A stretch of 64,000 nucleotides of DNA from contig OZ001293.3 in the NCBI GenBank assembly GCA_963921275.4, positions 1,760,001 through 1,824,000 of the forward strand. The letters run 5' to 3'. Source of the stretch: an uncultured Hormoscilla sp. GTDB lineage: Bacteria > Cyanobacteriota > Cyanobacteriia > Cyanobacteriales > Desertifilaceae. The translations under genes were made by a program, and so were the position numbers. Positions 4,752-41,634 of the stretch are shown piece by piece; position 1 is the stretch's first letter, and each line of letters begins with the position of its first letter. The notes under the pieces are model-generated. The model made no database searches and was not told the origin of the DNA. It saw nothing but the letters and a program-made list of their open reading frames with translations.

Positions 4752-7700
4752 ATGAACATTCTCGAACTAGGTGACAACCAACTGCCTCCCTTAGACTATA
4801 GCAGTTTGCTGGAAAAGATATTGTCGGTGCTGGAAAAGGAGGAAAATCCGTTCAAGTTCTCGAAAGATGGCAAGAGATTGCAAATAGATGTCGATCGCAT
4901 CGCTTTTGCGGTGGCGACGGCACGAGTAGAGAATCCTTTGGCCCTCAGCAGCGGCGTCAAGATGGCTACTGTTAATTTTAGCTCAAAAGAGAATTTTGCC
5001 AATCGCATCCGCAAAATCCGCGATCGCCTGGGCCAACTGCTGCGGGATGCTGCCCCCAAGGGAAATGTAGAGGAGGCGATCGCGGATTTGTTGACTGATT
5101 TATCAACATTTAAGGGTTCCAGTCCTGCTTTAGGATTTACCTATCCCTTCTCAAGAGAGTATACAGGCTTGCAAAAACATCGCCTCAGTATCCAGTTTGA
5201 TCGCCGGGGAAGCGATTCCCTGCTAAAATTTCACAAGTTGACTATTACTGTGGGGGGGATAAATAGCTTTAGAGAACAGCTGCAAGCAAGTCTGTCCAAC
5301 TATATCCAGAGTCAATTTGCTGATGTGGAAGAGGATGATTTAGAGGATTTAAATGAGACGCTAACGGACTCGATCGAGGATAAAAAGTCTGACTTGTATG
5401 AACTCCGGCGCATCATGGATACAGAATCTCTGGGGAAGCTGAAACGAGAGGCAAAAATCCGTTATCTAGAATTTATCCTGGCAAATATCGACAGTAATGT
5501 GGAGGACAGGGTTTATTTGGAAAATTTGATTCGGCGACTGCGGTTGCTAGAAGATTACATCAACGATAGGGACAAAGATGACGAATATTACCGAGTCAGC
5601 TATGAGGGTACATTTGTTAATTTACGAGATATGTTTGCTCGCGCGGAAGTGTTTGATAGTCTGCCCATTATTCCCTTGATAGCTGGACACTTGGGAGAAA
5701 CTACGGATGAAGAACGGGGCGAAAGGCAGTTTACTTTCGGGATGAAACTCAAGTTTAACGGTGAGGTTCACACAGAAGAGAGATCCCCCACAGTGTTGGA
5801 TTATCATCTGAGTCAGATATCGCCTCAAAGCCCAAAACATCGGGAGGAACTGTCAGATACTAGCAGCAGCGAAATTTTCAAAAGAAGAGTATTGAAACTT
5901 GCCTTTCTCTATGATTTTGTATTATATTCTGAGTTGGATCCTTTAGCAGATGACTATTACCCCAACTTGGAATTAACGCACGATCCGGTGAAATATGTGA
6001 ATGGGAATTGTTTACCTATCTTGAAAAGTGATAGAGAAGATTTCAAGCGCGAACGAGTATTTCAAACTATCATCAAAAGATTTGAGAAGAAAAAAATCGG
6101 ATTGAAAATCAAAAAATTGCAAAAGCTGCTGAAAAACTTTATGAAACGCGATCGCATATTACCGAAGCATTCATTGCAGTTGCAAGTTGGGGTAAAAAAG
6201 GGTATACTAGAGCGCAGCCAAGATCGTATTCTAGAGGAGAGGAGGTTTTTCAAATCTGTTTGGGATGGAAAAAAAGCTCTCAAATATCTTGCGGTCGAAG
6301 AAGGCCATGTCGATAGCAGCTATCTCTGTCATCTGCCAGTGAAGATCGCCTTTGAGGATCTGCGGTATTTTAGGACGGACGATCTGCAAACCTTTAGCAT
6401 GGGTTATGATATAGAGGATCGGAAAACCCTGCCAGTTCTGCTCACTCCTTCTTTGCAGGAAAAACGCTGTAAAGACACCTACGATCAATCATTTATGAAT
6501 AAGAAGACTGAGGTCATAGAAGGCAATTTAATATTAGTCACATATGACCATCAGCGGTTACAAAGCCAGATTTTCCAGGAGATCAAATCTCACAAAGCCT
6601 TCTTGTATCGGGTAACATTCTCCCTGTTACTATATATATGCTTGTGGATGTTGCTAAATTTGGTTGAGTCGAGAATATTCGTCCCGATAATGCGGTGGCA
6701 TTTGCGATCTGACCAAGACAGTTCTCAAGGGGAAGAGTTGATGCGATCGCTCTCGAATATATTATCCCACTTACTCAGCGACAAGCATCAGTCTAACGCC
6801 CAAGGGATTAATATTGGAGATAAAAGCGGGGAAAGATTCAGAGTTAATAAGGCCCTCAGTTCTCTGTATTCTGTACTCCCGAAAGTCTTTCAATTCTCTG
6901 ACTATCAGCCCCAGTTGGAGAAACTAGCTATTATTGTAGTCAGTAGCAAGGAAAGTGATGCCAGTTGGCGGGGCGATCGCAAGTTGTCTACCTTGCTGGG
7001 GGAGGCGATCGGCATTGAGAAGTTAGGAAATAGCATTCGCCTGGAACCTCTGTACAGCTTTTGTGCTAACGACGAACACGCACAGATGTTTCAAAGACCG
7101 GTGGCGATCATGGATGCAGTGACCAAACTCTACCGTCAGGGTTTCCGACATTTCCTGTATATTGCCAAAACCCCCTATTCCAGTACCCTGAACCTGACAC
7201 AGAAGGACGAAGACGACTCGCTGTTTTTCATGTCCCGACAGGGGATGCAGGCATTAAAGGAAGGGAAAAGCGATATCAAAATCTACCCGGTATTCTATGA
7301 TAAATACTATGTGGTGCCATTGAAAAAGACAGAGATATCGATGTACGTGCAAGATACCAGGGAGTTGACCAACTTAGTGGCGGACTCCAGCAAGCAGGTG
7401 GTAGTCTTCTATAACCTCTACAATGGGATTAAAGTAGGAAATAAAAAAGACGATAAGGTTTACAACGGCGTGATTTCCTACGCTACCCTGCTGGGAGATT
7501 TTTATGAGGGGGTTCTGGATGACCAAGACATCAACATGGGTTTGATATATGATAGCAATGGCAATAGCCTGAAAACGGATATCTTGCAATATCTCACCCT
7601 GTTTCACTTTTCCCGCTACGAAGCTATGCCCAGAAGAGATCGTAATATTAGTCTGAAGCTGGATGGGGTCGAGCCGGGAATCGCTTCCCGACCCTCCCTT

Positions 7701-8676
7701 TCGGAACCGGACTTGCGATTTTCACCGCATCCGGCTACTGGGTACTAGGCCCTTTTCATAGGTAGACTTAATAGGAATTACTTCCGTTAGCCCTTGCCGC
7801 CTGTCTTTTCTTCCCTTTCCTGGTTTAGCGAGTGGTTGTTCTGATAACCGTTAGTATCACCATTTTCAAGTCAGTTTTACCAGTTATCCATACCTTATCC
7901 TCCACTTGCGTTTCGGATTAGTTCCGTGGCTTTTTAGGATTACTCATTCCAGCAGCTTCCTAGTATCACCGACCCACGTCAGCGCTGGCTACCCAGCATC
8001 ATCTACATTACTGTAGATGTTATCCCAGGAATTACCCCGGGCATTCGCTTCTTGGGCCATCCCTCCCCCCGTGGCTTGCGCTTAACATCTAACTTGTCCT
8101 GATGGACAGCACACGAGAGGTTACTTCGTTCCCTAACAACATTTCGCGATACCTTTAGGTCCACACTATACCCCGGGAGCTATTTGAGTACTATATTAGC
8201 CAGAGTCTAAAACTAATACTAGCTACCATTTCCTTTTTAGGCCAGCGCATATAGCCTTATTTCGCTGGTTCCTTATAACGAGGCTTGCACATGTTTGCCT
8301 GCTCTAACCTTGGATATCTTTCCTAGCGGCGTCACCGGCTTAGGCTGCCAGTTATCCTACATTTGAGTCCTCGCTTAGCACCACGATGATGTCGCTTCGT
8401 AGCACCGAGGACCGGTGTCACCCCCGTACCTGGGGGGAGGGGAATTTAACCCCCATGCGGTCAGAGTTCCCGGCTAATGAAACCGGGCTAGCGTTCCGTG
8501 TTTGACCACGTTAGGCTAGAACGAATCGCACAGACCCCTACAAGAATATAATTGGGGATGATGCGGTAGGGGCCCTGTCAATTGTTCCTCACAGCACCCA
8601 AAAAGTGGAATTTAACCTTCTCGCCTTCTTGACAGAAGCGAGGCGGGCCTTGAATGTACAAAAAGGAGGCCGATAG
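4752..8676 (+). pseudogene. Large hypothetical protein (~1017 aa when the insertion is removed) with a putative inactive MID-PIWI C-terminal half; interrupted at 7661-8531
   Basis: Joining 7660 to 8532 restores an open frame (..ISLKL|DPYKNIIGDDAVGALS..ALNVQKGGR*). The PIWI-like call rests on motif order seen by eye only. Confidence 0.6.
7661..8531 (-). mobile_element. ORF-less group II intron (871 nt), antisense to its host gene
   Basis: Minus-strand 5' end GTGCGATTCGTTC; domain V AGTAGCCGGATGCGGTGAAAATCGCAAGTCCGGTTC; DVI hairpin; near-identical to 32176-33045. Confidence 0.93.
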
Positions 8677-13559: not shown

Positions 13560-13700
13560 ATGACTCAACTGGTGCTGCCAGACTTGAATCCGATCGCGAT
13601 CGCTGCGCGAAAAATCGAGAAATTGAAAGCACGAGCGAGGCGACATGGATGTTCTCTGATCGTTAATATATTATATCAAGTCCAGTTAATTAATTATTAA
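13560..13700 (+). pseudogene. FitA/Arc-like antitoxin fragment
   Basis: MTQLVLPDLNP..IEKLKARARRHGCSL with a short insert at a HIP1 site. Confidence 0.45.
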
Positions 13701-13753
13701 TAGTATGTTGGGTTACGCTGCGCTTAACCCAACATAAATCTTAGAAGCGGTTA

Positions 13754-14083
13754 CTATGGATCTGGAGTAAGTTTTGGAGGCTCTGGAGCAGGAGGTTGAG
13801 GATGTTTTCCGGCATAGTATATAACCACCTTGCGCTGTTCTGCGTCAGGCACATAAAAAACTCTGTCTCCTTTTGTTACCTTATATTCCCAGGCTCCCTT
13901 GTAATTTTTCCCCTTCATTGGAAAAATCTTCTTCGGCTTTCTTTGCATCGGAGTATTACACAAATACTCATAGCACTCACGAGCATTTTCTGGTTCCCGT
14001 GACTGTAATTCTTCCCAGTCTTTATTTACCCGTTTGTTCTTTGCGACCACTAGCCAAGGCGATTCAGTGTCTTGTACTTCCAT
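13754..14083 (-). CDS. RelE/ParE superfamily toxin
   Basis: Basic 109-aa protein with MKGKNYKGAWEYKVTKGDRVFY..VVIYYAGKH, downstream of acidic partners. Confidence 0.65.
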   Translation of the reverse strand: MEVQDTESPWLVVAKNKRVNKDWEELQSREPENARECYEYLCNTPMQRKPKKIFPMKGKNYKGAWEYKVTKGDRVFYVPDAEQRKVVIYYAGKHPQPPAPEPPKLTPDP

Positions 14084-14214
14084 TCCATTTCTTTTTCTGG
14101 CGGGGCAACCTGCGAGGATGGCTATAAAGTTGTTTCATTTTCTTCAGCAGGTTTATATTGTGAAGGATTTTGTGATGCCGCCAGTTTTTTTCTGACGGCA
14201 CTACACTCTCAGAA

Positions 14215-14658
14215 TCATACGTCTTCAGCCTCTTTAGCCGCCGGTTTAGTTAGCATCACTTCTTCTTCAAACTCATTACTCAAGAAAGCCTCAGCTAGTT
14301 CTGGACTTTCAATTGCGATCGCACTTTCGTGCCACTCATATATGACTGCATCCAGCTCATCCAAAGCATCTGGTTGGGATAGCGCCTCTTGGGTCTCTTC
14401 GAGCAGATCTGCTAATTCTTCAGAGTCAAATACCCTCAACCATCCGTAGGGATGATCGGCACTAATCTCCTCTCCTGAACGCAATTGCTCTACAATGCCG
14501 ATCGGGCTGCTCAGATCATTCGCTTTATTCGCTTTATTCGCTTTTCTTGTCTCTTGGCTCTTGACTGACCAATTTGCTGTTGCTGGAGAGCCAGGCACCA
14601 AGGTAGCGCAGTTAGGGGACATCAGCATATAATTCACTTCCTCCCGGTATCGACTCAT
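14215..14658 (-). CDS. Putative antitoxin, paralog 2
   Basis: Acidic protein, HPYGWLRVFDSEELA..EWHESAIAIESPEL. Confidence 0.6.
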   Translation of the reverse strand: MSRYREEVNYMLMSPNCATLVPGSPATANWSVKSQETRKANKANKANDLSSPIGIVEQLRSGEEISADHPYGWLRVFDSEELADLLEETQEALSQPDALDELDAVIYEWHESAIAIESPELAEAFLSNEFEEEVMLTKPAAKEAEDV

Positions 14659-14689
14659 CTATTACAACTCTTTACCTATATACTTCTTG

Positions 14690-15079
14690 CTAAAATCCAG
14701 CACTCCCGTTATTTTCCGGTTTCGTTAGCACCACTTCTTCTTCAAATTCATTGGTAAAGAAAGCCTCAGTCAATTCTGGACTTTCAATTGCGATCGCACT
14801 TTCGTGCCACTCATATATTACTGCGTCCAACTCATCCACATTCGCTTCCGAAATCGCCTCTTTCGTCTCTGCAATCAGTTCGGCTAATTCTTCAGAATCA
14901 AATCCTCTCAGCCATCCGAAGGGATGGTCGGAACTAATCTTCTCTCCTGAACCCAATTGATTAGCAATTGCGATCAGTTCCTTCGCTTTTCTTGTCTCTT
15001 CCTCTTTTACTGGCCATTTTCCCAGATTTCTACGTTGCAAAATCTGGCTATTAGAAGGGGACATTACCATATAGTTCAC
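14690..15079 (-). CDS. Putative antitoxin, paralog 1
   Basis: Clear paralog of 14215-14658. Confidence 0.6.
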   Translation of the reverse strand: MNYMVMSPSNSQILQRRNLGKWPVKEEETRKAKELIAIANQLGSGEKISSDHPFGWLRGFDSEELAELIAETKEAISEANVDELDAVIYEWHESAIAIESPELTEAFFTNEFEEEVVLTKPENNGSAGF

Positions 15080-15396
15080 TCCATTAGCTGGGGGAACAGC
15101 TAGGGGTATTTGACATCGAACTCAATTAAGTGGAGCTGGGCAGAATCGAACTGCCGTCCGCATCAGTTATTGACTTTCCGATCGTTCACAGGCTTAGCCC
15201 TTCTAACCCTCGGGGCGGGAACCATCCATTATCCCGGATGACAGGATGCTCTGGTGAGTTCTTTGCTAGTTAGTCTACCAGAGACAACCGACTAGCGCAT
15301 CCGTTGGGGTTTTGTCCGCAGCCCTTAACGGAGTCAGACTACAGACGCTCGAACCTATATGAGGTGTTTAGGCAACCGCAGCTGCTTTACGAGCAA

Positions 15397-17698
15397 GTTA
15401 GCTAGATAGGCGCATTACTGCACGTACCCGCCTCCAGAACCGGACTTGAAACTTTCGCCTCATCCGGCTCCTCGTTCTGGATGGTGCTTCCACCTCGGCT
15501 ATGGTGGTCTTGATGACAGTACCTATGTACCATCGCCAGGTTACTGCGCTTGTTATTCCGGTGGTTCCCGTCGATGTGGTGTAGTTCCAGGTCTTGTCCC
15601 GTGAAAATTACCTCTCCACAGAGCGAGCAACATCCCTTCTGAAAACCTACAAGCTTTTGCCTCAGATCTTCATGGGAGGGGTCATGTTTGCCCCTTTTGC
15701 TCCAGTAAACCCAGTCTCCATCGAACGGGGATTTTTCCCCTCTTACTTTCTCGTGTACTCGACTAGAAAAGTCGGTGTACTTGGGGAGAGTCACCAGATT
15801 GCCATTTTGGTCGTATCCGCCGTACCTCCAACCTTGTTCCGTCTTATGCCAATAACGCTTCCATTGGGTATCGAGTGATTGCTTACCACAGTCCCGTTTA
15901 GTTAGTGATAGCAGCCGATAGTATAGGGTTTCATCCAGTGAATTGAATGCTTCATAGCTACCATTTCCCCATCGGAAGTATTGCGCCCATTCCCGCATTA
16001 TTGGCTTGAGTCTGGATACAATGCTCAAGGTTCTCTTATCCTTGACCATCCTAGAGGCAATTGTTAACTCATGCTTGAGCTTGGTCTTTTGCTTTTTGAC
16101 GGCATCTTCACTCGGACCGGTTATCAGTCGGTGTCCCAGATGTTTTCCGTCCGGTTTTCTGGCCCCTCTATGTTTACCTCTCTCCTTTTGGATGAAGTTG
16201 TATCCCAGAAAGTCAAACCCCGGTTCTTCTCCATCTGTTTGGACTTTGGTATTACATATGCGGGTTTTCTCCTCGGAGAGCTTGAGACCAATAGCTTCTA
16301 GGAATTGCTCGACCACCGTCTTGGCCTGTTGGACTTTCTCCAGTTCGTCATGAATCACGACAAAGCCGTCTGCATACTGGATTAACACAATCCCAGCTGT
16401 TTTGCTTCCGTCTTTGTTGCTTTTCGACTGCGGCTGGATGCGGTTTACTTCTGTTTCCAGGCCCTGTAGGGCAATGTTTGCTAGCAGCGGACCTATGACT
16501 CCCGATTCTGGGGTGTCTTTGTCCCTTTGCGGAAAGACATTGCCTTTCATTACCCCCGCCTTCAGCCAGGCTTTTATCTGTCTCCTCATGATGCTGAACG
16601 TATTCAGCTTATTCAGGAGTTGTTCGTGGTCGAGCCGGTCAAAACCAGCGATTTCGGCGTCCAGGACATATTTAGGTTTGTACCTCAGTCGGATTCTAAT
16701 CCCTTCTATAGCATCTATAGCGCTCTTCCCGGGTCTGAATCCATAGCTGTTAGGTTCAAAGAAGGCTTCCCATTCTGGTTCTAGGGCAATTTTGGCTAGC
16801 GCCTGTTTGGCCCTGTCCTCAATTGTGGGGATGCCTAACGGTAGCCCTTTCTCGGAATCTGGTTTGGGTATGCAGACTCTTTTTAATGGAGAGGCTTTAC
16901 CGTCTATCTCTAGCCTTTCTGCTAGGGCTAACCTTTCAGAGGGCTTCAGGCAAATAATTCCATCCACTCCCAGAGTTTTGGCTCCCGTATTGTCCTGGGT
17001 GACCATTCTGGTGGCCAGCAGTTTGGCGCTTCTAGACCTGATGACTAACTTTTGCAGGTTTTTCACCCTGTCGAAGTCGCCCTCTTTAGCCGCTTTGTAG
17101 ATTCGCTTTTGGATGCGGAAGACTTCTGTCCGAACTTTCGTCCAGTCTAGATACCCCCAGGTTACCTTTGCGGTTTTAACCTCTGACATCTTTCTGGGCT
17201 GTCTCTACTCTTCCAGACCGACGGCCTTTCAGCGTATCCCCAGAGTTACCCGAGGCATTTGCTTGGTGACCGTATCCTTCACTGTCCTACCGCAGGTTTG
17301 GAACTCTGCCCGTTTCCGGTTGAGGTACTTCAGCTTCCCTAGCTTCATCGTTCTCCATTGGCTGTGGGTTTAGGTCTCCAGTTTGCGCCGGTGGATGAGG
17401 TGCCTCCGCTCGGTACCATATCCTCACGGTCTTACCACACGTCCCTGTTTTGGACTCCGGGGTATCAACCCTGTTTTCCCCGTTAACATTTGACGACGCT
17501 TCTCGATACTGGATTCACTGTCCGTTAACCATGCCCACTTGCGCATGTATCTTGATTCTGGGTGGGTTCCCGTCCTCTTGTTTCTTTTCCCTGCTTCGCT
17601 CCCTGGTTTACCATCCCAGGATGCGGGGATGCGCTGTCCCTCCGGCACTGAGAGGAGTAGGACTCTAACCTACATGGAGTACGACTATCTAGTCGCAC
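15397..17698 (-). mobile_element. Group II intron (2302 nt) inserted in the tmRNA tag frame
   Basis: Starts GTGCGAC; DV GAGCCGGATGAGGCGAAAGTTTCAAGTCCGGTTCTG; ends ...CTAGCTAAC; encodes an RT/maturase. Confidence 0.95.
15402..17189 (-). CDS. ltrA: Group II intron-encoded protein (RVT_N, degenerate RT, X/maturase, HNH)
   Basis: PLGIPTIEDRAKQAL, FEPNSYGFRPGKS, YADG in place of YADD, C-terminal CSLC..HHIDG..N..H..CH. Confidence 0.92.
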   Translation of the reverse strand: MSEVKTAKVTWGYLDWTKVRTEVFRIQKRIYKAAKEGDFDRVKNLQKLVIRSRSAKLLATRMVTQDNTGAKTLGVDGIICLKPSERLALAERLEIDGKASPLKRVCIPKPDSEKGLPLGIPTIEDRAKQALAKIALEPEWEAFFEPNSYGFRPGKSAIDAIEGIRIRLRYKPKYVLDAEIAGFDRLDHEQLLNKLNTFSIMRRQIKAWLKAGVMKGNVFPQRDKDTPESGVIGPLLANIALQGLETEVNRIQPQSKSNKDGSKTAGIVLIQYADGFVVIHDELEKVQQAKTVVEQFLEAIGLKLSEEKTRICNTKVQTDGEEPGFDFLGYNFIQKERGKHRGARKPDGKHLGHRLITGPSEDAVKKQKTKLKHELTIASRMVKDKRTLSIVSRLKPIMREWAQYFRWGNGSYEAFNSLDETLYYRLLSLTKRDCGKQSLDTQWKRYWHKTEQGWRYGGYDQNGNLVTLPKYTDFSSRVHEKVRGEKSPFDGDWVYWSKRGKHDPSHEDLRQKLVGFQKGCCSLCGEVIFTGQDLELHHIDGNHRNNKRSNLAMVHRYCHQDHHSRGGSTIQNEEPDEAKVSSPVLEAGTCSNAPI

Positions 17699-18138
17699 AA
17701 GGAACAATGTTGTTCGCAGTTACATTTTTATTTGAGCCGATATTTACGAGAGGAGACTCACTCTCGACCTGAATCACGGAGCAGTTTTCGCTAACACGTC
17801 GAAACCATTGCAGCCCCATGTCTTACATCTCCCATTCTGGCTTATATCTTTGCAACTGTCAAGGGGTAATTACGTAAATTTTGCGATTTCTGCCATTTTT
17901 TTTGCATTGAGGAACTGCAACTGCTGGTACAGCATGGCGATCCGGGGCCAATCAGCACCGGCACTGGTGGCCGCCCGTAAGGGGTTGCCAAAGATTGCCT
18001 CGACTTCCAGTGGCTTGCCTCGGTTGGGGAAAGGGAACAGGGAACAGGGAACAGGGGGGGATCGTTTAGAGCCGAACAACATCTCCAGATGCCTTATTTT
18101 TGGTGCTCCCCCAAAGCTTGGATGCGTCCTGAGTTCAC

Positions 18139-19137
18139 TTACTTACCGCTACCCATAAGATAAAGCAAAGCCATTCTGATCGCAACACCGCTAGTAACCT
18201 GTTGAGAAATTAGGCTAAATTGGGGGTCGTCCATCAGATAGGAGCTAATTTCTACCCCCCGGTTGACAGGACCTGGGTGCAAAACTTTCACATCAGGTTT
18301 GCAAAGTTTCAGCCGCTCGCGGGTAATGCCAAACAACTGATGATATTCTCGCCCGCTGGGAAGTAAATGCTGAGTCATTCGTTCCTTTTGCAAGCGCAAA
18401 GTCATGACAAAATCAGCATCTTGTAACGCTGGTTCAACCTGCCAATGCAGATATAACTGTCTATTTTGTGCAGAATCATCGGATATGGCAGTATATTCAG
18501 CAAGCAGTTTCGGTGCCAGAGTCGGCGGCGCAGCCAGATGGACTTGGGCTCCAGTTGTTGTTAGACTCCAGATATTCGATCGGGCAACCCGGGAATGGAC
18601 AATATCCCCCACGATCGCGATCTTTTTGTCTGCCAGGAGTGAAATACGCGGATGCTTGGCATCTAACTGTGAGGTAATAGTAAATAAATCCAGCAATGCC
18701 TGAGAAGGATGTTCGTGCTGGCCATCACCCGCATTCAGCACCCGGACTTTTGCCTCCAGACAATCCATTAATGAGGCGATCGCATTCGGCACCCCGGCCT
18801 GTTGATGGCGAATCACCATCATATCAGTTCCCATCGCCAAGTAAGTCTTCGCCGTATCCAAAATCGTCTCTCCCTTAGAAAGAGAAGAAGTTCCCGGGGC
18901 AAAACTCAGGGTATCAGCAGAAAGCCGCTTTGCCGCCAGTTCAAAACTATTGCGAGTGCGGGTAGAAGGTTCAAAAAACAGATTAGCCACCACCAGTCCG
19001 AGCAAAGTCGGCACCTTTTTCGTCCGTCTGGAGAGCACCTCAGCAAAGCTAGTAGCAGTCTGTAGAACAGTATCATATTCATCTGGCACAAAATCAGCCA
19101 GAGAAAGAATATGTCGCCGATTCCAAGTATTGGTCAT
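18139..19137 (-). CDS. pyrB: Aspartate carbamoyltransferase catalytic subunit
   Basis: [32 protein letters not shown]. Confidence 0.97.
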
Positions 19138-19249
19138 TGGTTAGTAGTTGGTGGCCGTCGGACAGGCGGGAGGCCCGGACTACGTAAAAAAATAAAGCTG
19201 ATTATATCCTAGAGACATTGAATCACATAAATAGCAATATCGATCTATT

Positions 19250-19783
19250 TTGGTGATGAACATAAAGATTTTAGCATTTCTGCTGTTCGGCACTATGCTA
19301 GTCAGCGGCTGCACTTGGATGCGCCGTTACCCCCTAGCGGGTGAGAACACCTTGAGTAGCAACCCCATAGCTGACCAAGTCACCACAACTAGCAGCCTAT
19401 CACCCACCTCCGGCACCGATCCTGCTAATAATACTGTAACGGTGACTATTTACAAAGCAGACAGCCAGTGCGAAACCCTGATTGCCGAAAAAGAAGTCCT
19501 TCCCCAGCATCGCTTACTTGTGAGGGTTGTAGGTAAAGTCATAGAACAAGCGACTTCCACTGACTTTGACATCGCTGGTTATCGGGTGAACCTAGATCGA
19601 CAGCGTCAAGTCGCCACAGTCGATCTGCGACTAAATCCTAACACGAGGCGGCAGTTTGTCTCTCTTTCTTTTTGCGAACAGTTTGCCCTATTTGGCAGTC
19701 TCCGCCAAACCCTGACTGATAACCCCAACTGGCATATCGAAGAGGTTCGCTTCACCCAACTAGGTAAAGAAATTATCTTCTAA
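19250..19783 (+). CDS. GerMN-domain lipoprotein
   Basis: Lipobox LVSGC; ATVDLRL..SLS.CEQFALFGSLRQTL. Confidence 0.6.
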   Translation: MVMNIKILAFLLFGTMLVSGCTWMRRYPLAGENTLSSNPIADQVTTTSSLSPTSGTDPANNTVTVTIYKADSQCETLIAEKEVLPQHRLLVRVVGKVIEQATSTDFDIAGYRVNLDRQRQVATVDLRLNPNTRRQFVSLSFCEQFALFGSLRQTLTDNPNWHIEEVRFTQLGKEIIF

Positions 19784-30100: not shown

Positions 30101-33100
30101 TCGTCCAATACATCATAGCGAGTAGCTGGATTTGGCATATAATCTGGCCAGATGATCAACCCTACGTCAATGTCGTTAATTTCGTTAATCGACTCAGGCA
30201 AATATAATCCCGTGCCCGTGACTATTCGCAAACCGCCAACATTATCCAGCACATTAGCTGGTGCTTTTGCTGCCGACAGTTCCCAGAAATTATCTCGATC
30301 TGTTAATCTTCCGTCTGGTAACTCTTGTACCTGAGACTTCCGGATCCGGTCTTTATCCGAGTTCGAACCATCCGGTTCAACCATTTTTTCGTTCCTCCGC
30401 CATCTCTGACTACCTGCTCGTAGCTCGCCGCGTCAACAAACTCGTTACTATCCGGGTCATATATCTTCCTTGGCAGGTTATTTCCCACCAGAACCCGATC
30501 TCCCACTCGTTCTTCTCTGTCTTGCAGCCGATCGGGGTCTGTCGCTGGCGGTCGATCTAGTTTTTGTGTCAAATTTGTATATGATGTAGTATTGTCGTTC
30601 CGTTCAAAAGGATACATCCAATAATACGGCGGGCGCAGGGGGTTTTGCCCCGTGCCATCATCCCCTTCCGTATACGCTGCAAAAAAACTATTCGCCTCTG
30701 TTTCATTCATGATGGTGATTGCGTCATCCGCACTGGTAGCAGGTAACGACCCCCCGCTAGTTGACAATGCCGACTCTCCATTGGGCACTTCCGCAAACGG
30801 CACCTGACGAGTGCGATCTCTAAAATAGTTTTCCAACTCTTCCTTGCGCACCTTGTAGCCATCCATCCCCGGGTTTTCTTTCAGCCTTTCTGCCACCGGA
30901 TTTCAAACTTCCTCGGGGTCTTTCTCCGTATCTGTTCTCTCGATCTTGTCCACCGAGTCGTTTCCTCTCCAGAGAGCAGCATTTACCATATAGTCGATCC
31001 GCTCGTTGAAAGCGAAGGTATTGTAGGACAGGTCCGCACCTCCTTCTTTGTCTACTGTCTTATTCGCTGCACCAAAGTCCTGCTCTGTTGCCGATGGATC
31101 CACTAGTCCAAATAGGTCTATATCTGCATTATTTGCATCAGTACTAGTATTGACTGCACCTGCGCCTATATTTCCGCCCACAATCACCTTACTCAGTCCC
31201 TCCTCGTAATAGCAAGAATCTCGACTGCTGACCAAAAACAGGCGCACGTCAGAATTGCTATTAACGTTCCCTATCAGCAAGTTACTGTTGGTCATCACCC
31301 CTCCATTCATATTTAACCCCGTATCTGAGAAGATAGCTAGGTCATCTCTGTAGACCAACGGGTTGTTGTTCAGGGGGATTCTACTCCGGTCTTGCTGATA
31401 CTCTAGAGCCGAAAAGCCCTTTCCGCCAGAGAACTTTTCATAATAGTTGTTATCGTCGTCGTTCAAGTCCGTTATATCTGTTATTGGCACGTTGGCCGCA
31501 TATACAAATATCGCCTTTTTAATCTGATTCCCCGATCTATACCAATCCGAGTTTCCTACAAATCTAGCGCTCTTCGCGACCGAACTCTCGCATCTTCTAC
31601 CACCCAGCTTAGAGTCATCACTTGGTAGCGTTCTCGCTTCCAGGGGGTTTCTTCGTCTTGTAAATTCGCCCTCGCCCTCCTCGCCTCTGAGCGGGCTGCG
31701 GAATAAGATCCCGTAGAGAGTAAATGTATCGAACTTTCCGTTATTATCTGTATCTACCGGAAACTTCCAGGCCGTGGTCACCGTTTCTCGATCTTCCAGA
31801 GCGCTTTGATCCGTATCTGCCTCTCCGATACCTTCTTTACCATCAACATCAAAAACCAGCTTCAGGGGCGTCTCATCTCCGAAGATATACCTTTTATTTT
31901 CCATTGCTTTGAGCAGATCTTCATCCGTGGGAGTTCCCCGTGGCAGGGTGGAGTCCTTGAACAACTCCTCTATTTTTGCCCTGGCCCTGTCTAGCGCTGG
32001 TGCCGCCGCATTCAATGTCGCCTCATTCACTCTAAAATTATGTGCGTTCTTAGAGCGGTCAAAAGAGCGTAGCACCATTGCCGTCGTCAGTAGCACCACC
32101 ACCAATGACACCATTGTCATTGTCGGCAATACAAAGCCTCTCGTTGCCTGGCCCCGCCTACCTCTCCTTTTCAGTGGATGGGGTCGAGCCGGGAATCGCT
32201 TCCCGACCCTCCCTTGAGGAACCGGACTTGCGATTTTCACCGCATCCGGCTACTGGGTACTAGGCCCTTTTCATAGGTAGACTTAATAGGAATTACTTCC
32301 GTTAGCCCTTGCCGCCTGTCTTTTCTTCCTTTCCTGGTTTAGCAAGTGGTTGTTCTGATAACCGTTAGTATCACCATTTTCAAGTCAGTTTTACCAGTTA
32401 TCCATACCTTATCCTCCACTTGCGTTTCGGATTAGTTCCGTGGCTTTTTAGGATTACTCATTCCAGCAGCTTCCTAGTATCACCGACCCACGTCAGCGCT
32501 GGCTACCCAGCATCATCTACATTACTGTAGATGTTATCCCAGGAATTACCCCGGGCATTCGCTTCTTGGGCCATCCCTCCCCCCGTGGCTTGCGCTTAAC
32601 ATCTAACTTGTCCTGATGGACAGCACACGAGAGGTTACTTCGTTCCCTAACAACATTTCGCGATACCTTTAGGTCCACACTATACCCCGGGAGCTATTTG
32701 AGTACTATATTAGCCAGAGTCTAAAACTAATACTAGCTACCATTTCCTTTTTAGGCCAGCGCATATAGCCTTATTTCGCTGGTTCCTTATAACGAGGCTT
32801 GCACATGTTTGCCTGCTCTAACCTTGGATATCTTTCCTAGCGGCGTCACCGGCTTAGGCTGCCAGTTATCCTACATTTGAGTCCTCGCTTAGCACCACGA
32901 TGATGTCGCTTCGTAGCACCGAGGACCGGTGTCACCCCCGTACCTGGGGGGAGGGGAATTTAACCCCTATGCGGTCAGAGTTCCCGGCTAATGAAACCGG
33001 GCTAGCGTTCCGTGTTTGACCACGTTAGGCTAGAACGAATCGCACAGACTCCGCCGCAGGTTACCCGCCAACTTTTTGGTCATTTTTTTAGTCAACCTAC

Positions 33101-39445: not shown

Positions 39446-41634
<2,189 letters not shown>

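Follow-up and report, generated by a model that had tools for sequence, protein, structure and literature searches.

Can an ssrA gene that is cut inside its own proteolysis-tag reading frame by a group II intron of more than two kilobases still give rise to a working transfer-messenger RNA (tmRNA)? This question is raised by a locus in a stretch of 64,000 nucleotides (nt), hereafter the window, which covers positions 1,760,001-1,824,000 of contig OZ001293.3 in the assembly GCA_963921275.4 of an uncultured Hormoscilla sp. (Desertifilaceae), a genome of seven contigs and 7.03 Mb that we call G000. We consider it probable that the gene does work, being restored by maturase-assisted group II splicing, and that the intron is no longer mobile.

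The gene lies on the minus strand. Exon 1 (119 nt, 17817..17699) carries the 5' half of the tRNA-like domain, the region of pseudoknot 1 and the resume codon, and ends with the first 19 nt of the tag frame (17717..17699, GCG AAC AAC ATT GTT CCT T), its terminus at 17699 reading ...GCGAACAACATTGTTCCTT. The intron (2302 nt, 17698..15397), which is present in a single copy in the genome, opens with GTGCGAC at 17698 and closes with ...CTAGCTAAC at 15397. Exon 2 (266 nt, 15396..15131) opens at 15396 with TTGCTCGTAAAGCAGCTGCGGTTGCCTAA and supplies the remaining 29 nt of the tag frame including its stop codon (15396..15368, TT GCT CGT AAA GCA GCT GCG GTT GCC TAA), followed by the region of pseudoknots 2-4 and the 3' half of the tRNA-like domain. 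The insertion is in phase 1 of a Phe codon of the tag. These boundaries had been proposed in a first-pass annotation made from the letters of the window, and they match the minus strand to the base; its claim that ssrA is split in the tag frame by a group II intron agrees with the Rfam models of domains V and VI, with the in-silico joining of the exons and with intronless relatives. Since both gene halves, the intron ends and the empty site of the relatives all coincide to the base, this arrangement is not a product of chance.

When the two exons are joined by their coordinates and the resulting 385 nt are given to ARAGORN, the program returns one tmRNA of 386 nt, with a resume codon, the tag ANNIVPFARKAAAVA* and the two halves of the tRNA-like domain at 1-27 (5') and 350-386 (3'); both of these halves are also picked up in the RF00023 alignments of the window gene. 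Exact splicing would thus rebuild the Phe codon and the tag, as the first-pass annotation had stated, and yield a canonical tmRNA. Moreover, the joined sequence aligns as a single ungapped piece, from 1 to 385, with the intronless ssrA of four genomes of the same genus, at 98.4% identity in G002 and G004, 97.7% in G003 and 95.6% in G001, and at 82-86% with the genes of seven more distant genomes. In a search of 41 genomes with the whole gene, the matches to the two exons abut in G001-G004, and these congeners are almost invariant over 45 nt to each side of the junction. They therefore display the empty site and fix the insertion point independently of any rule about intron ends. The tag ANNIVPFARKAAAVA is also encoded by three of the four congeners and by two of the seven more distant intronless genes that were read. 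The joined exons being canonical and colinear with intronless orthologues, they show no decay. In G002 (locus L010, 883-1136), we also observed that the intact gene is directly preceded by a tandem duplication, which comprises 205 nt of upstream sequence and 49 nt from the start of ssrA (98.5% and 100% identity).

The intron ends, GUGCG at 17698 and AC at 15398-15397, fit the group II consensus GUGYG...AY. Domains V and VI, i.e. the catalytic hairpin and the branch-site hairpin, are recognized at 15472..15397 (minus strand) by RF00029 with 57.4 bits (cut-off 40) and by RF04357 with 56.7 bits; the former match covers model positions 1-77 of 77, ends exactly on the last base of the intron, and is the best of the four group II matches in the window. 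The three others (7663-7739 and 32178-32254 on the minus strand, 41058-41136 on the plus strand; 44-46 bits) are very alike among themselves and unlike the ssrA intron. BLAST with domain V suggests that many dozens of group II introns are present genome-wide, to which the ssrA intron is related by 65-81% identity over 51-389 nt of the reverse transcriptase (RT) region, or over about 50 nt of domain V.

Concerning the pairing of the intron with its 5' exon, a candidate exon-binding site 2 (EBS2), AAUGUU at intron positions 209-214 (17490..17485, minus strand), forms six of six Watson-Crick pairs with the exon at -13 to -8 (AACAUU), and its position is homologous to a stretch of a related intron, L029, that is complementary to the 5' exon of L029 itself. 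This suggests that it may be EBS2. A candidate EBS1, AGGGAA at intron positions 359-364 (17340..17335, minus strand), forms five Watson-Crick pairs and one G-U pair with exon positions -6 to -1. Complementarity of such length between EBS and intron-binding sites is common by chance. An attempt to place EBS1 through the related introns L022, L029 and L030 was discarded: the alignment was rough, the EBS2 position was shared with L029 only, and none of the three showed a 6-nt EBS1.

The intron encodes a protein of 595 amino acids (aa; 17189..15402, minus strand) with RVT_N, RT, maturase (GIIM) and HNH regions. In Pfam, RVT_N (97.4 bits), RVT_1 (94.2 bits) and GIIM (26.4 bits) all score above their cut-offs, and the HNH match, at 21.1 bits, falls just under its cut-off of 21.4; the HNH region has the form 'HHIDGN..NN', which is common to the relatives and so does not signal decay. 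RT and maturase (X) domains such as these are expected of a protein encoded in domain IV of a group II intron. The reading frame extends across both domains V and VI to a stop 5 nt ahead of the 3' splice site. Its C-terminal segment EEPDEAKVS-PVL is domain V in translation (window 15402-15472) and recurs in relatives of 41-59% identity. The RT catalytic motifs are degenerate, with LDAEIAG-FD in place of DADISKCFD, TPESG in place of TPQGG and QYADG in place of RYADD. Standard motifs are kept by all five relatives of a first alignment and by most of the 11 relatives of a second, nine of which retain both the Asp of motif A and the YxDD of motif C, the exceptions being P0003 (YADN) and P0005 (DAN).

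Among 5.8 billion proteins, the nearest are 55-59% identical (P0002-P0006), followed by a broad cloud of cyanobacterial intron proteins at 41-47%. Relatives were also found at three loci of the genome collection (38-53%) and five loci of the metagenome collection (31-59%), and the searches of the genome, metagenome and protein collections returned none above 59% protein identity. BLAST of both ssrA exons against eight such loci gave no match, and ssrA does not supply the 5' exon of L032. As regards retrohoming, the RT catalytic residues are not intact, and there are no further copies or filled sites elsewhere in the genome. Together, the degenerate RT residues, the single copy and the lack of a close relative indicate that the intron has probably lost its mobility and that the protein is presumably kept for splicing; it seems to have given up reverse transcription.

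Standard tools fail on the interrupted gene, as had been anticipated. On the unspliced window, ARAGORN places a false tmRNA at 15130-15471, with its start in the intron and a meaningless tag, AADKTPTDALVGCLW, and RF00023 yields two half matches of 32.3 and 25.1 bits, both under the cut-off of 47 and thus with nothing at the gathering threshold; by comparison, the intronless gene of G003, 97.7% identical to the joined exons, scores 123.9 bits. The first-pass annotation had made the dependence on splicing conditional on this being the only ssrA, and no second one was found in the assembly by RF00023, RF04321, ARAGORN or BLAST. Over the whole genome at E-values up to 1, RF00023 gives 33 matches, none over the cut-off, and apart from the two ssrA halves these are all of 91 nt or less, tRNA-sized or shorter. 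The model of the permuted form, RF04321, has two matches in the genome, both far below 47: one of 20.6 bits at the window ssrA itself and one of 16.4 bits. ARAGORN run on all seven contigs returns the false call only, and by BLAST each exon is present once.

The partner of tmRNA is in place. The smpB gene is intact, with a 178-aa open frame free of stops and a PF01668 score of 216.6 bits. A search of G000 with PF00472, the RF-1 domain, gave no short ArfB-like frame; its sole matches are two long frames, of 405 aa and 369 aa, which we take as RF1 and RF2. tmRNA-SmpB is therefore the sole ribosome-rescue system recognizable in G000, rescue factors known from other phyla having not been searched for.

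Evidence beyond the assembly comes from sequencing runs and environmental contigs. Three runs of the organism, all from one study, contain 98-100% of the sampled words of the split-ssrA stretch. We also examined contigs from the RNA libraries X5, X9, X11 and X13, each belonging to a different further study; their sources are a sponge, two sets of sediment samples and marine water. Contigs that span most of the intron at 96-99% identity to the window are present in each of these libraries. The 3' junction is bridged by X9 record 24 (15372-15894), and the 5' junction by X9 record 27 and X13 record 15 (reaching 17728), which shows that the same intron occupies the same ssrA site in related environmental populations. 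These close copies exist in the RNA libraries, yet the protein, genome and metagenome collections offer at most 59% protein identity. The contigs differ from the window at 102 places, of which 40 are listed; 35 of the listed differences fall in the protein frame, and 20 of these 35 are synonymous, where random change would give 22%. Per run, the insertions that are listed sum to 3, 15 or 18 nt, all multiples of three, and are in frame. Both the excess of synonymous changes and the in-frame indels suggest that the intron protein, although its RT motifs are degenerate, is under purifying selection. Finally, X5 record 17 (277 nt) follows exon 2 up to 15396 and then continues with 12 letters complementary to an exon-1-like end; it is a ligated or intronless form at exactly the junction of the window gene.

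We thus propose the following course of events. The gene would be transcribed from its own promoter into a precursor of about 2.7 kb, whose intron would fold and, with its own protein acting as maturase, be excised with exact ligation of the exons; the Phe codon would be rebuilt, giving a normal tmRNA of about 385 nt that would work with SmpB. Because the break lies inside the translated tag, an RNA that was cut and left in two pieces could not serve, and exact ligation is needed.

A number of observations weigh against a gene that is restored in this way. A search of 14900-18100 at E-values up to 10, which returned nine matches, gave none to the Rfam models of the 5' domains of the intron (group-II-D1D4). 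Families of this kind exist in Rfam, and their models cover only some intron classes. For EBS1 a second candidate, AAGGA at intron positions 420-424, competes with the first, the two forming 5-6 pairs. At two conserved maturase positions, too, the protein deviates from its relatives (REWAQY for RGWANY), which could mean decay rather than specialization. The junction seen in X5 record 17 is not assignable to the intron-bearing strain, since three of its 12 exon-1-like letters differ from the window, and it may come from an intronless or different strain; the contig depths are likewise not assignable to one organism, and neither the depth ratios of exon to intron bins nor the gaps in the cover of single runs enter into our reading. 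The assembly of G000 is 96.7% complete. In addition, at least one cyanobacterium kept in the laboratory can do without tmRNA, and a dead gene could hence be tolerated.

The main rival of a working split gene is a dead one: the insertion would have inactivated ssrA, splicing being absent or too poor, and the cell would do without trans-translation or rely on a rescue factor that has escaped recognition. The case for splicing in this strain is indeed indirect, and the degenerate RT motifs, the two altered maturase positions and the uncertain EBS1 would all suit such a gene. However, its exons are intact and up to 98.4% identical to intronless orthologues that look functional, smpB is intact, no ArfB-like gene was found, and the 595-codon frame is open, with variants that are mostly synonymous and indels that keep the frame. 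The filled site also persists in environmental relatives whose intron has diverged by 2-4%, while their exon pieces differ by no more than 0-1 letters. We therefore regard a dead gene as unlikely. Slightly less so, though still improbable, is a gated gene, in which splicing is partial or dependent on conditions and the intron sets the supply of mature tmRNA. Reading on from exon 1 gives a tag frame of 10 codons that ends at a stop within the intron, so that the precursor might add the tag ANNIVPCATR; the intron-bearing contigs that bridge both junctions come from RNA libraries, and an intron is retained here in a highly expressed gene. On the other hand, the pseudoknots and the 3' tRNA half of the precursor lie 2.3 kb from the start of the tag, and species of the same genus do without the intron. 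An assembly artefact, by which the assembler would have misplaced the intron into ssrA, would be conceivable in a genome so rich in group II introns, repeats of a kind that break or mis-join assemblies. It is nevertheless hardly credible, for this intron is present in a single copy, three runs of the organism hold nearly all of the sampled words, and contigs of independent studies cross both exon-intron junctions. A working ssrA restored by splicing thus appears the best account of the locus, with splicing in vivo, the maturase role of the protein and the loss of mobility being what we infer for this strain.

A second split gene, which as a precedent in kind speaks for a working gene in the window, was found in G028, a genome of the same order and another family that consists of one 3.8-Mb contig. 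There, a gap of about 870 nt separates the matches to the two ssrA exons. It holds an intron of 840 nt (GTGCGAC...CTCGAC; L021 1432..593, minus strand, within G028:C1:2850800-2852600) that lacks an open reading frame (ORF) and matches RF00029 with 51.4 bits. It is inserted 7 nt ahead of the resume codon and is unrelated to the window intron. ARAGORN finds no tmRNA at the unspliced locus and one, with the same tag, after in-silico joining. The three other genomes of this genus that were inspected have a standard ssrA. The intron belongs to a family with 43 matches in G028, at 72-86% identity to the ssrA copy, and in the six copies that were read the loop of the EBS1 hairpin varies with the 5' exon: CAUUUU in L041 pairs with the ssrA exon end AAAAUG, CUAGAG in L042 with CUCUAG, and CUCACC in L043 and L044 with GGUGAG, L045 and L046 having one mismatch each. 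This covariation with their own exons shows that base-pairing guided the insertion into ssrA and that the ssrA copy fits its exon.

How widespread such genes are was assessed with RF00023 in two samples of 151 genomes each, one from the order and one from the class; 11 genomes belong to both, so that 291 are distinct. A standard ssrA is present in 143 genomes of the order sample and 127 of the class sample. Those without it include the two group II cases, G000 and G028, and 15 genomes of families f39 and f53 with the permuted form, which was confirmed in all nine that were tested. In seven drafts (G038, G098, G149, G206, G208, G222 and G227) the ssrA pieces stop at contig ends, and the parts retained carry no intron signal; these count neither way. 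The same applies to G194, G198, G209 and G280, where RF00023 gives tRNA-sized matches only, and to G043, G111 and G112, which are 61-87% complete and have no RF00023 match. With two confirmed cases in 291 genomes, and up to 14 more undecided, group II-split ssrA is rare. Among the seven drafts, represented by loci L025-L028 and L035-L040, four break at nearly the same point, at query positions of about 293-310, for which a repeat, an insertion or a mixture of strains could be responsible. In the class sample we also noted two genomes with two tmRNA matches over the cut-off, all of standard form (G295:C1:1355624-1356025 and 1035751-1036152; G230, on C39 and C14), and a second permuted-form match over the cut-off at G255:C1:926965-927111.

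To our knowledge, based on full-text literature searches that did not extend to the group II intron database or to the majority of subscription journals, no group II intron in ssrA has been reported. The 2025 tmRNA database holds 97,179 sequences under three gene forms, namely standard, group-I-intron and permuted (PMC11915505). There, all 883 sequences of the intron form have a group I intron in the T-loop, at four subsites, and the term 'group II' is absent from the paper (PMC11915505). This agrees with the statement of the first-pass annotation that the tmRNA introns known to it are group I introns of the tRNA-like domain. Its authors, those of the database, concede that introns outside the T-loop were possibly missed, and 33,537 bacterial genomes are given there as being without a tmRNA assignment (PMC11915505). 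The 2015 paper on the tmRNA website does not contain 'group II' either (PMC4383926). The survey of precedents suggested by the first-pass annotation thus yielded no group II entry in these database papers, and one further case, G028, among the genomes searched. Three papers were considered as precedents and set aside, as they concern an intron in petB of a diatom plastid (PMC7707228), an Arthrospira genome for which a tmRNA and 150 group II introns are listed with no link made between them (PMC2853384), and a group I intron with tmRNA mentioned only in passing (PMC13153191).

The closest parallel is offered by the tmRNA genes with group I introns, which also carry a self-splicing intron in ssrA whose removal is needed for a working tmRNA, and are also missed by standard finders (PMC11915505). 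They differ in that their intron sits in the T-loop and few have a protein gene, for a LAGLIDADG endonuclease (PMC11915505). The window intron, by contrast, belongs to group II, interrupts the tag frame and codes for a protein with RT, maturase and HNH regions. The permuted two-piece genes of some cyanobacteria (RF04321) share with the window gene a non-standard ssrA layout and the phylum. However, they are circularly permuted, their RNA stays as two base-paired pieces and their break is outside the tag frame, while the window gene keeps the standard order and is broken inside the frame, so that its pieces must be ligated.

Group II introns in housekeeping non-coding RNA genes are familiar from organelles, where plastid trnK with matK and other tRNA and rRNA genes harbour ancient ones, MatK having lost most of the RT as well as the endonuclease. 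The window locus resembles trnK/matK in having such an intron fixed in a housekeeping non-coding RNA gene and a protein that has lost its RT motifs and is presumably kept as a splicing factor. It differs in having a free-living bacterium as its host, an intron that congeners lack and a full-length protein with an HNH region. In thermophilic cyanobacteria, work on Thermosynechococcus has reportedly revealed proliferating families of ORF-less group II introns. G028 fits this pattern, with about 40 copies of a 0.8-kb intron whose EBS loops differ to suit their own exons; the window intron, single-copy and ORF-bearing, does not. We know of no copy of such an ORF-less family in ssrA.

The usual description of group II introns in bacteria is that they stay out of housekeeping genes. 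The window intron interrupts a structured non-coding RNA of high abundance, at a point where function returns only if the exons are ligated exactly, and the locus resembles the domestication known from organelles at an early stage that is still polymorphic. The G000 and G028 loci provide a concrete form that the catalogues have missed, and some genomes thought to be tmRNA-less may simply hold split genes. The locus would also be a testable system for the coupling of ribozyme splicing with ribosome rescue. A more far-reaching proposal, which we hold to be speculative and put forward with considerable doubt, is that group II-split ssrA constitutes a fourth natural form of tmRNA gene that has arisen at least twice in cyanobacteria; that the window intron would be fixed and immobile and its protein a dedicated tmRNA maturase; that the only recognisable rescue route of the cell would require ribozyme splicing, whose efficiency, as set by Mg2+, temperature and protein supply, would gate tmRNA; and that the precursor would offer a tag without a degron.

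As for the surroundings of the gene, a promoter-like sequence (TTGACA-17 nt-CAGAAT; 17862..17834, minus strand) with 10 of 12 matches lies about 17 nt upstream of the mature 5' end of the tmRNA. Promoter-like sites are not enriched in the region (2 seen, 2.4 in shuffled sequences), so that nothing but its position argues for this candidate. Comparison of window positions 13700-15130 and 17818-19300 with the congener loci L010-L013 shows a common flank of no more than about 205 nt on the upstream side of ssrA and 45 nt on the downstream side, outside which the neighbourhoods differ between the window and its same-genus counterparts. Directly downstream of ssrA are two tandem paralogous frames, 14215-14658 (147 aa) and 14690-15079 (129 aa), both on the minus strand, which, like a nearby frame of 109 aa (13754-14083), have no Pfam match; the upstream neighbour is an aspartate/ornithine carbamoyltransferase gene (18139-19137).

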